Part shown: positions 15,654 through 17,568 of the stretch, piece after piece
Position numbering within the stretch: the stretch's first letter is position 1
Layout of the letters: each line of letters begins with the position of its first letter
Source: Moraxella nasovis
GTDB taxonomy: Bacteria; Pseudomonadota; Gammaproteobacteria; Pseudomonadales; Moraxellaceae
NCBI RefSeq assembly: GCF_022701215.1
Contig: NZ_CP089976.1
Coordinates: 1,470,001 to 1,502,000, forward strand
DNA: 32,000 bases
Direction of reading: 5' to 3'
The notes under the pieces: model-generated
What the model saw: only the letters and a program-made list of their open reading frames with translations
The model's database searches: none
Told to the model about the DNA's origin: nothing
Position numbers and translations under genes: made by a program

Positions 15654-15666
15654 GAGTTGATGAAAT

Positions 15667-16753
15667 ATGCAAACAGTTAATATACAAGATATTACCAACA
15701 CTATTCTACAAGGTGATTGTATTGAAATATTAAAGACAATACCAAGTGAAAGTGTAGATTTAATCTTTGCTGACCCCCCTTATTTTATGCAAACTGAAGG
15801 TGAATTATTAAGAACAAATGGTGAAAAATTTTCAGGCGTAGAAGATGAGTGGGATAAATTCAATGATTTCCAAGAATATGATAAATTTTGTACGCTATGG
15901 CTTGCAAAAATGCAGAAGAGTGCTAAAAAAAAACGGGTTCTATTTGGGTTATTGGCTCATTTTAAAAATATATACCGAATAGGTTACATTATGCAAAATT
16001 TAGATTTTTGGATTTTAAATGATGTCGTTTGGAATAAGTCAAACCCAGTACCAAACTTTGGTGGAACAAGATTTTGCAATGCTCACGAAACCTTGCTTTG
16101 GTGTTCCAAAGGTAAAAAAATAAATTTACCTTTAATTATAAAACAATGAAGTTTTTGAATAATGATAAACAAGAACGAAGTGTTTGGGAATTGCCATTAT
16201 GCACAGGAAACGAAAGAATCAAAGATAAAGATGGCAATAAAGTTCACTCAACACAAAAACCTGAAAAATTATTGTACAAAATAATTTTATCAACTACTAA
16301 GCCCAATGATATTGTTTTAGACCTTTTTTGGTACAGGAACAACAGGGGCTGTTGCTAAGAGATTGGGGCGTAATTATATTGGAATAGAGCGTGAAAACAA
16401 ATATATTCATGTCGCTAAAAAAAAGATTGAAAGAGATAAAATCAATGCCTAATGAGATTGAGCTTTTATCGTTGGAAGTAAAACCCCCAAAACTCCCAAT
16501 GCAAAAGCTGGTAGAGAGCCAATTTCTTAATATAGGTCAAATCTTATTTGACAAAAATAAAAATCCTATATGTAAAGTTTTAGGAAATGGCAATGTATCA
16601 GATGACGAAGAAACTTTATCGATACACAAAATGAGTGCCAAATATTTAAACAAATCTAACCATAATGGCTGGGATTATTTTTACTTATTTGACAACAATG
16701 AGTTTATTAGCTTAGATAGTTTAAGGTATGAGTTTTCTAAAATTAAGGTGTAA
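15667..16753 (+). pseudogene. Beta-class N6-adenine DNA methyltransferase of the CcrM/M.HinfI type, disrupted by six homopolymer-associated frameshifts
   Basis: Track ORFs 15667-16149, 16146-16358 and 16391-16753 are consecutive pieces of one gene in different frames. Motif IV DPPY is at 15772-15783, followed by [30 protein letters not shown], motif I (D)[11 protein letters not shown] after a frame switch at T6 16324-16329, and a C-terminal SIHKMSA...NGWDYFY domain. The order IV then I defines the beta class. Confidence 0.85.
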
Positions 16754-16758
16754 TATTT

Positions 16759-17568
16759 ATGAATGATTCAATTTCAACGCTAATCAGGCGGTATCAAATA
16801 TTTTAAAAAATAGCAGTAGTGATAAAAAAATTAGAGAATTACTAAAAACACACGATGTAAAAATTCATTTTGTGCCAAAAAATTATAGAATTTTTGGCGG
16901 TATTTTACAAAGCATGAATATTCAATTCGGTAATTTTTTAGAAGAGTTTATGACTCTTTTCATTAAGTCCGATGGTAGATACGAGGTTTTAGAAAAATAT
17001 AGTGGCAAAAAGAGCAATAGCTTTTCACTCTCAACCGAAAACGATAGAAGAATTGATAAATTTATCAGCGATTGTCAATACGGTAATGTTAACCTTAATA
17101 AAGATTTTATGAAGCTTTTAGATGAAATTATTAAAGATAACGATATAAATATTTCAAAAATAAAGCATGATATTGATATTTTATTTAAAAAATAAAGAAA
17201 CTGGTATTATTTATTACTTGGAAGTTGAATATAATGACGACCATGAGACAGGAAAATTTGTAGATATAAATCGCAAATTTATAAAAACCTATGCGTATTT
17301 GATTAGAGAGTTTCCACAATCACAGATTAAGCCAATATTATTTTTCTTCAACAACAAAAAGATGAAAGGAAATATCTATGTTCCCGAAAATACTAATATT
17401 AGACGTGGAAAATCATTTTTTGATGAGTTTTTGAATGTAAAATATGAAGATGTCGATGCTTACATGAGAAACCTTTCTGAAAGTCCTGAAAATATTCAGG
17501 CATTTGACGACCTGTATAAGAAAATCATGTCAATAGATGTCCGATGCATAGAAGAGAGTAAAATATGA
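16759..17568 (+). pseudogene. Putative cognate type II restriction endonuclease, frameshifted
   Basis: It starts 5 nt after the methylase stop. ATG 16759 opens a 15-codon frame ending at TAA 16804-16806. A second frame is open from 16767 and continues as track ORF 16872-17195. A third piece, 17167-17568, joins at A6 17187-17192. Total length is ~268 codons. A possible PD-(D/E)xK-like segment is HDIDILF...IIYYLEVEYN. The endonuclease assignment rests on position and size only. Confidence 0.5.

Follow-up and report, generated by a model that had tools for sequence, protein, structure and literature searches.

A decayed HinfI-type restriction-modification cassette between trpB and trpA of Moraxella nasovis, in what is probably a genus-wide cassette-exchange site

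Why should the trpB and trpA genes of a bacterium be held apart by almost two kilobases of AT-rich DNA? The question is raised by a stretch of the Moraxella nasovis chromosome (NCBI RefSeq assembly GCF_022701215.1, contig NZ_CP089976.1, positions 1,470,001 to 1,502,000 of the forward strand), here called the window, in whose 32,000 nucleotides (nt) a segment at 15654-17568 lies between the two genes; coordinates are those of the window unless a different locus is named. A first-pass annotation had taken this segment for a decaying CcrM/HinfI-type restriction-modification (R-M) cassette, and its presence there for an unusual, isolated insertion. We consider it likely that the segment is an inactivated HinfI-type Type II R-M cassette, made up of a methyltransferase gene (M) and an endonuclease gene (R), and that the spacer it fills is used for cassette exchange across the genus, in the manner of a "minimal mobile element".

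The trp genes of the window are all on the + strand: trpF (12486-13121), a short-chain dehydrogenase gene (SDR, 13480-14229), trpB (14430..15653) and trpA (17565..18377). The last two are the conserved anchors of what we will call the slot, trpB on the left (PALP domain, 3.3e-43; 79-84% amino-acid identity to trpB of 13 Moraxella/Psychrobacter loci) and trpA on the right (Trp_syntA, 3.5e-81), and the distance from the trpB stop to the trpA start is 1,911 nt. After the trpB stop codon TAA there are 13 nt (GAGTTGATGAAAT; 15654..15666, + strand), which form the junction and the cassette's own short upstream leader, and then the M start codon ATG at 15667; similarity to the HinfI locus of Haemophilus influenzae starts at 15653, and interspecies variation starts at the trpB stop codon. 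The M frame closes with TAA at 16751-16753 and is followed by a 5-nt gap (TATTT) and the R start codon ATG at 16759, while the end of the R frame overlaps the trpA start in the tetranucleotide ATGA (17565-17568). The 13-nt left gap, the 5-nt intergenic gap and the ATGA overlap are all as the first-pass annotation had described them.

The cassette has a GC content of 0.292, as compared to 0.437 for the remaining window, and it is the window's lowest-GC stretch of 1.9 kb (non-overlapping stretches have a minimum of 0.379 and a median of 0.434); the hand counts of G+C on which the earlier claim of a foreign, AT-rich composition had been based (17/60, 18/60, 35/60 and 30/60) are exact. The C content of its + strand is 12%. 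A consensus scan found no terminator-like sites on the + strand within 15654-17568, which agrees with the earlier statement that the cassette contains no hairpin terminator. At the cassette ends no terminal inverted repeats, target duplications or attC-like structures were found above chance, and no integrase or transposase gene was found across the 32 kb window; coordinates, repeat searches and recombinase searches thus uphold the view that the segment sits exactly between trpB and trpA without mobility genes or terminal repeats. A candidate target duplication, in which trpB 15555-15571 and R 17521-17537 match at 15 of 17 positions, was rejected, as the R copy is the native R C-terminus in other Moraxella cassettes. 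No phage relatives of the cassette were matched, its sole plasmid match being a 143-nt methyltransferase fragment in Lactococcus, and no Rfam family reached its gathering score anywhere in the window. The 32 kb window is ordinary chromosome.

To identify the two genes, their reading frames were corrected: three frames were stitched to give an M protein of 361 amino acids (aa), and the stitched R protein has 271 aa. The M gene (15667..16753, + strand) is a pseudogene of a beta-class N6-adenine DNA methyltransferase of the M.HinfI/CcrM type. The corrected protein matches Pfam N6_N4_Mtase (PF01555) at 4.9e-71 over profile positions 1-221 of 221, and it aligns to the Caulobacter CcrM structure PDB 6PBD at 2e-117 over residues 11-354, with 6PBD covered from 14 to 359 and thus over its full length, including the CcrM-like C-terminal domain. 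Its motifs occur in the order DPPY before FGTG, which identifies a beta-class enzyme. Against the NCBI CcrM equivalog model it scores 491.5 bits, and since this is under the 830-bit cut-off, the protein is CcrM-like and not a CcrM orthologue; its RAMA domain, at 25.9 bits, is likewise below the cut-off of 35.2. The window M shares 79% of its residues with the M.HinfI homologue of H. influenzae, and is by its similarities a member of the R-M-linked M.HinfI branch, and not an orphan CcrM.

The R gene (16759..17568, + strand) is a pseudogene of an R.HinfI-family type II restriction endonuclease. Its corrected product matches NCBIfam NF045831 (HinfI family type II restriction enzyme) with 406.6 bits at a cut-off of 175 (4e-122, model positions 1-264 of 264) and is 77% aa identical to the cluster holding the prototype R.HinfI, T2F1_HAEIF of H. 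influenzae. Among 701 R homologues the best have 74-79% identity; one of the best clusters is that of T2F1_HAEIF, and two others consist of Moraxella proteins (bovoculi, lacunata, equi, catarrhalis, lincolnii). The corrected R found no match in the local Pfam library, though its homologues carry a precomputed PF09520; the family is settled by NCBIfam. The pair as a whole is ~76% identical at the nucleotide level to the H. influenzae locus over the entire 1.9 kb. The identification as a CcrM/HinfI-type pair is therefore borne out by full-length family matches of both corrected proteins, by the 6PBD alignment and by 77-79% identity to HinfI proteins, and the 77% identity to the prototype cluster suggests that the pair would have recognised GANTC.

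Both genes are interrupted by frameshifting indels, which we polarised by alignment to two intact references, the H. influenzae locus and an unrelated metagenomic locus. There are eight, all described here on the + strand. In M, a +1 in or at an A5 run (15906..15910), a +1 T outside any long homopolymer (15938..15939; GGGTTC for GGGTC) and a +1 in a T4 run (15960..15963) together restore the frame after scrambling about 20 codons; they are followed by a -1 in an A run (16114..16120; A7 for A8), the reading frame from the M ATG stopping at 16149, by a 2-nt deletion within the D-P-F-F-G-T-G motif that binds S-adenosylmethionine (16323..16324), and by a +1 in an A8 run (16417..16424). In R, a 4-nt deletion (16784..16785) lets translation from the R ATG end after 15 codons, and a +1 in an A6 run (17187..17192) lies between the conserved HDID and E-x-K segments. 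The eight frameshifts in the 1898 nt of the cassette compare with none in the 26,967 nt of the 23 other open reading frames (ORFs) of the window (Fisher P = 3e-10), and homopolymer runs of at least four are shifted in 5/72 instances in the cassette versus 0/497 in the other ORFs (P = 3e-5); the other three indels (the +1 at GGGTTC, the -2 and the -4) are not homopolymer events. That the frameshifts are confined to the cassette argues against a generic sequencing error. The three returns to frame (+1+1+1; -1-2; -4+1) were considered as a sign of selection and dismissed, as 3/8 returns is what a random walk modulo 3 gives.

The endonuclease also carries substitutions. Of 95 R columns that are at least 95% conserved among 119 homologues, the window keeps 92; the differing ones are position 10 (A for I), K159E and D165E. 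Position 10 lies at the 4-nt deletion where the frames were stitched, and we treat it as an artefact of the reconstruction. K159E (17227..17229, + strand; GAA for AAA) replaces a lysine that is invariant in 119/119 homologues, and D165E (17245..17247, + strand) an aspartate that is 99% conserved, in the motif DDHDTGKF. K159 is part of the R pattern HDID...E-x-K, whose invariant residues in the numbering of our alignment A1 are D139, D141, E156 and K158, and of these the window keeps the D and E residues. An AlphaFold model of the R family (pLDDT, a per-residue confidence score, 86.6) places HDID...E-x-K on consecutive strands, and the top fold matches of this model, though weak (E >= 0.05), are with few exceptions PD-(D/E)XK nucleases. 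At its C-terminus the R frame reads through the stop of its homologues for another 10 codons (17536..17568, + strand), a stretch that holds GAGAG at 17554-17558, resembling a Shine-Dalgarno sequence for trpA, and the ATGA overlap.

Apart from this damage the cassette is well preserved. Between the corrected M and that of H. influenzae the ratio of nonsynonymous to synonymous substitution rates (dN/dS) is 0.095, compared to 0.082 for an intact pair; no nonsense substitutions were seen in the corrected M and R frames, and the corrected M retains all its motifs aside from the indels. An in-frame stop at M codon 97, returned by a codon analysis of the DNA alignment, was discarded, since the aligner had misplaced a +1 and direct reading gives Lys. 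The low dN/dS, the lack of nonsense codons and the retention of 92 of the 95 R columns and of the M motifs all argue that the cassette began to decay only late in its history. Judged by the eight frameshifts together with K159E and D165E, both cassette genes are dead, and the decay noticed in the first-pass annotation is real.

What kind of site, then, does this cassette occupy? A scan of species-representative genomes with TrpA gave 22 loci, none of them from M. nasovis itself, the best match having 72% identity. In the non-Moraxellaceae loci trpB and trpA abut or are at most 80 nt apart. In Alkanindiges and an uncultured Moraxellaceae genome the gap is 1.3-8 kb and holds genes of host-like GC, including a DUF2804 gene, and in 13 Moraxella/Psychrobacter loci it measures from 223 nt to 2.6 kb, with a GC content of 0.26-0.38 versus 0.48-0.51 for the flanks. 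The assumption that trpB and trpA as a rule lie side by side and are coupled thus fails in this family, where they are generally separated, and so does the notion of a one-off insertion: the slot is a hotspot shared by Moraxella, which holds many different cargos and, in some species, intact HinfI cassettes in the very same place. The junction comparison between relatives that had been proposed as a check of the insertion reveals both an empty site (M. canis) and intact copies (M. bovoculi and others).

More than 10 types of cargo are found in the slot across Moraxella. M. caprae and M. lacunata have an antitoxin-like ORF with a PIN toxin and ORFs without assigned function; Moraxella sp. TY6 has a PIN_8 protein of 477 aa; M. 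bovis and M. bovoculi 237 have an HNH endonuclease; M. equi, one Moraxella metagenome-assembled genome (MAG) and M. oblonga have NADAR with or without Macro and further unassigned ORFs; M. oculi has a complete PD-T4-4 anti-phage pair (7967-9960 of its locus; A 6e-135, B 6e-35); and M. boevrei and two metagenomic Moraxella have single unassigned ORFs. The slot of the Moraxella MAG Bco_11 (8216-8758 of its locus) holds 543 nt that are ~83% identical at the nucleotide level to the HNH cargo carried by M. bovis and M. bovoculi, but that have no ORF of at least 50 aa and look degraded, and that of M. canis is empty, at 43 nt. Cargo ORFs of appreciable size all have the orientation of the trp genes, and they fill the space between trpB stop and trpA start; similarity between species breaks off at the stop codon of trpB and is found again from the ATG of trpA onwards. 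Terminator-like sites are missing from three of four other cargos examined, and in other species trpA starts 10-40 nt beyond the ends of unrelated cargos. No conserved junction motif was found across the cargos beyond a purine-rich stretch at the trpA ribosome-binding site. In M. equi the NADAR gene (5923-6473 of its locus) is split into two overlapping ORFs and looks degraded as well.

An intact version of the HinfI cassette is present in the slot of M. bovoculi strains, of a genome labelled M. lacunata and of a MAG labelled M. equi, in the form of a 97-aa ORF (orf97), M (361 aa) and R (262 aa); its R is publicly annotated as 'restriction endonuclease HinfI' (AKG09307.1). The cassette is 98-99% identical among the three lineages, while their trpB is 81-90% and their trpA 74-84% identical; being intact and so similar across species, it points to recent spread. 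M. bovoculi is polymorphic at the slot, with HNH in strain 237 and HinfI in the others: trpA is 96-97% identical between the two alleles and the middle of trpB 97-100%, while the last 300 nt of trpB, next to the cassette, are 83-93% identical. We claim within-species polymorphism for M. bovoculi only, as the loci labelled M. lacunata and M. equi differ by 5-20% from the trpB and trpA of the type strains. In M. nasicaprae (CP089977; slot at 4654-6772 of its locus) the HinfI cassette is degraded, and consists of orf97, a 5' M fragment, a 241-aa ORF and a 248-aa R.

Several observations on these relatives deserve mention in their own right. The M. nasicaprae cassette contains a nested replacement, M having lost its 3' two-thirds and R its 5' end to the 241-aa ORF, which leaves no intact methyltransferase; this ORF has a weak match to type II restriction enzymes (PADLOC REase_II, 8.6e-06; precomputed Pfam NmeDI_C). 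The orf97 family, to which no function is assigned, leads the slot cargo in the loci of M. bovoculi (4624-4917), M. nasicaprae (4654-4947) and M. oblonga (7420-7698), where it is 98-100% aa identical even though trpB differs by 10-20% of its nucleotides; the cargo that follows it may be HinfI or NADAR/Macro, so that it acts like a module in its own right. M. equi has a distant relative of it with 86 aa. HinfI-family cassettes also occur outside the slot: that of M. catarrhalis has a CLIPPER-domain gene and a peptidase gene as its neighbours, and on a Logan contig of ERR3039732 (4911-6789) an M and R pair is inserted between the co-directional essential genes ftsI and murE of the cell-division (dcw) cluster. 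The R of the latter is 99.6% identical to the M. catarrhalis copy at the nucleotide level and its M only 88.5%, which makes it a mosaic pair.

The flanks of the slot suggest how it is reloaded. Cargo modules shared between species are 93-99% identical, while the flanking genes are 75-88% identical. In 100-nt bins of the pairs M. bovis/M. bovoculi and M. equi/MAG S11M, the cassette is 97-100% identical, and this high identity continues through ~500 nt of trpB and 100-300 nt of trpA before it falls to the species background. Such tracts of identity running into the flanks suggest replacement by homologous recombination with crossovers in trpB and trpA, and not the action of a site-specific element. 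The slot also has differing whole-gene cassettes between the same conserved genes, an empty site and a lack of mobility functions and terminal repeats, as expected of a minimal mobile element.

Other explanations have to be weighed against the preferred one, an inactivated cassette in a cassette-exchange site, and two of them concern the state of the cassette. It might really be an intact and active HinfI-type R-M system whose frameshifts are homopolymer errors of long reads. A/T runs of 4-8 nt do hold five of the eight indels, an assembly in one contig of 2.03 Mb is suggestive of long reads, and the corrected frames are free of nonsense substitutions; but the 23 other ORFs, with their 497 runs of at least four and 44 of at least six, have no frameshift, three indels are not simple homopolymer slips, and the invariant Lys and the 99%-conserved Asp of R are changed by independent substitutions, so that we regard such an artefact as highly improbable. 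Alternatively, the remnant may have been kept for a new function, with the 133-codon ORF at 17167-17568 acting as a translational coupler for trpA, or with phase variation or programmed frameshifting of the genes. It is true that the ancestral stop of the R frame is gone, so that this frame now leads exactly into the ATGA overlap, and that several frameshifts lie in slippery A runs; this is countered by the number of separate frameshifts, which include a -2 and a -4 and are thus irreversible by any single tract, by the substitutions at the predicted catalytic site of R, by the lack of an evident ribosome-binding site before 17167 and by the trpA genes of other species, which start from unrelated cargo ends across gaps of 10-40 nt. 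We therefore think it very unlikely that the remnant serves either purpose.

The other two concern the way in which the cassette came to be there. A mobile element with a dedicated recombinase (integron-like, a transposon or of some other type) targeting the trpB-trpA junction would account for junctions that run precisely from trpB stop to trpA start in every species and for cargo in a single orientation, but we hold it to be extremely unlikely given a 32 kb window without integrase or transposase, cassette ends without terminal repeats, attC-like structures or duplications, the missing shared junction motif and the tracts of high identity in trpB and trpA, which homologous recombination would leave. 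A stronger contender, which we rate as possible though less probable than the contrary, is that the cassette is an old vertical resident, in the slot before M. nasovis diverged, co-diverged with its host and only recently decayed. Its 67-77% nucleotide identity to the M. bovoculi-type and M. nasicaprae slot cassettes roughly matches that of the flanks (69-78%), the C-terminus of its R (KKIMSI...) and the R-trpA junction are closer to the Moraxella slot type than to the H. influenzae type, and a dN/dS of ~0.09 implies long function. Yet the cassette is no nearer to the slot cassettes than to the H. influenzae and M. catarrhalis copies at other loci (74-77% in every case), the orf97 module of the other slot cassettes is missing from it, its GC content is still 0.29 without amelioration toward 0.44, and turnover of the slot is fast elsewhere in Moraxella.

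Several points limit the preferred explanation, above all for M. nasovis itself. The window cassette has 74-77% identity to every other HinfI cassette, in the slot or elsewhere, which is the same as or slightly above the divergence of its flanks; these flanks, at 78% (trpB) and 70% (trpA) identity to M. bovoculi, display no identity gradient. The TrpA of the window is 100% identical to that recorded for M. nasovis, but the collections hold no second genome of the species (exact TrpA/TrpB look-up; the next TrpA is 77% identical), and with only one genome there is no empty or intact allele from the same species. That M. nasovis is competent is an assumption carried over from other Moraxella, and the role of K159 as the predicted catalytic Lys of a PD-(D/E)XK motif comes from its conservation and a weak fold match. 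This particular cassette would be either an old resident lineage of the slot or derived from an unsampled donor.

With these reservations, we propose the following course of events for the decayed cassette and its exchange site. Cassettes would enter by homologous recombination in trpB and trpA following DNA uptake, and PMC6384898 and its references describe M. catarrhalis as naturally transformable. Since the cargo is co-oriented, tightly packed and terminator-free, it would be transcribed by read-through together with trpB-trpA, and the 3' end of a cassette would supply the ribosome-binding region of trpA. The M. nasovis system was probably functional for most of its history, as suggested by the dN/dS of ~0.09 versus intact homologues and by the 92/95 near-invariant R positions that are kept. 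By the logic of R-M systems, in which loss of R is safe and loss of M alongside an active R is lethal, the nuclease is likely to have been disabled first; the methyltransferase, now useless, would then have degenerated, for the most part through slippage in A/T runs. In its present state the segment would neither restrict nor methylate, and would be no more than a transcribed, C-poor spacer of 1.9 kb ahead of trpA.

Any role that is left to the cassette would accordingly be structural, with no present R-M function predicted for it. The gene order implies that trpA is reached by transcription through 1.9 kb of RNA that would be largely untranslated. As regards Rho utilisation sites, the low C content should weaken Rho-dependent polarity within the cassette. 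Co-transcription of the cassette with trpB and trpA and an effect on the TrpA:TrpB stoichiometry, both raised in the first-pass annotation, appear plausible.

For annotation, it follows that 15667-17568 should be described as two pseudogenes of a HinfI-type system, and that GANTC methylation or cutting by M. nasovis should not be assumed from this locus. The value of the locus lies in its context, a compact slot in the trp cluster that has time and again taken up new cargo (R-M, toxin-antitoxin, HNH, NADAR/Macro or PD-T4-4 genes), where several cargos have been caught decaying in situ and where the recombination tracts in the flanks are clear. It offers a natural system for studying both the spread of small defence cassettes without mobility genes and the constraints that insertion into an operon places on cargo orientation, terminators and downstream translation, and the slot is a candidate neutral integration site for engineering Moraxella. 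More speculatively, and with considerable doubt, the trpB-trpA spacer, probably together with the trpF-SDR and SDR-trpB spacers, might not be a neutral recombination anchor, but a selected, integrase-free and operon-embedded "safe harbour" for defence or selfish genes. If this were true, promoterless cargo would be expressed by read-through from the trp cluster, and it would have to stay co-oriented and terminator-free and give trpA its translation start; it would in turn be shielded from imprecise deletion, which would entail loss of tryptophan synthase, so that the host would be addicted to the cargo by its position. On this view the M. nasovis cassette, though dead, would have been kept for want of a donor allele, without which it cannot be cleanly removed.

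The surroundings of the slot have features of their own. The neighbouring trpF-SDR spacer is variable in Moraxella, with TauE or TauD+TauE in some species, as is the SDR-trpB spacer, which may hold two-gene modules (e.g. 89 aa + PIN, 76 aa + PIN, 84+152 aa, 135+67 aa); in the window these spacers (13122-13479 and 14230-14429) are ORF-free and AT-rich, with GC contents of 0.27 and 0.30. DUF4230 has trpF, and trpA has accD, as its next gene in M. canis, M. bovoculi and M. nasicaprae. In the window a SulP permease gene and a metallo-beta-lactamase-fold gene (9191-12011) separate DUF4230 from trpF, and a gamma-glutamyltranspeptidase gene (18404-20170) separates trpA from accD; both inserts have a host-like GC of 0.43-0.45. 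A long AT-rich hairpin of 16 pairs with a T tail (12339-12373), 3' of the metallo-beta-lactamase-fold gene, is probably an ordinary bidirectional terminator. The palindromes CCNGG and GGNCC are strongly depleted in the window, with observed/expected ratios of 0.13 and 0.15 (dinucleotide expectation), and GANTC has a ratio of 0.57, the third lowest among 16 NNnNN palindromes and suggestive at most; depletion of the three sites could stem from other restriction pressures, or from effects of codons and composition.

As regards known systems, the closest in gene content is the HinfI system of H. influenzae (T2F1_HAEIF and M.HinfI; GANTC), which has the same gene pair in the same order and orientation and the same NCBIfam equivalog as the window R; it differs in its site, between a PNPOx/DUF2470 gene and polA, and the window copy is a pseudogene pair with eight frameshifts and K159E. 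The M. bovoculi-type cassette shares with the window copy its slot, orientation, tight packing, AT-richness (GC 0.33) and lack of a terminator, but it is only 75% identical to it at the nucleotide level and has the leading 97-aa ORF, which is absent from the window cassette, and its R stops 24 nt before trpA without overlap. Caulobacter CcrM (PDB 6PBD) has the same beta-class architecture as the window M, including the C-terminal domain; it is a cell-cycle-regulated GANTC methyltransferase and an orphan regulator, whereas the window M is paired with a nuclease, inactivated and below the equivalog cut-off.

For the slot as such, the best precedents are the minimal mobile elements of Neisseria. 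PMC2993543 describes the insertion of R-M systems into operon-like gene clusters, and PMC3082526, with reference to Saunders & Snyder 2002 and Snyder et al. 2007, defines the minimal mobile element and reports a type II R-M system at the Neisseria pheS/pheT locus. The Neisseria elements resemble the Moraxella slot in their conserved and linked flanking genes, their differing whole-gene cassettes, R-M cargo and lack of mobility machinery, and in being exchanged by homologous recombination in a naturally transformable genus. The Moraxella slot differs in genus and anchors, in exchange between species, and in cargo that is uniformly co-oriented and supplies the downstream translation start. Like the defence hotspots that are flanked by core genes, it is a fixed position that gathers low-GC R-M, toxin-antitoxin, PD-T4-4 and nuclease genes; in contrast to them it is tiny (0-2.6 kb), lies inside a biosynthetic cluster and has no integrase or tRNA, its cargo being promoter-proximal and co-oriented with the operon. 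In the library of papers searched, nothing relevant turned up on a hotspot between trpB and trpA of Moraxella or on a HinfI system of this genus. Each element of the picture is known in kind, from the HinfI R-M pair and R-M systems as mobile cassettes to operon insertion, exchange through the flanks and decay in situ; what the Moraxella slot adds is thus not a new kind of element but a modest new example, with its genus-wide occurrence, its list of cargos, its recombination tracts and its cargos in decay.

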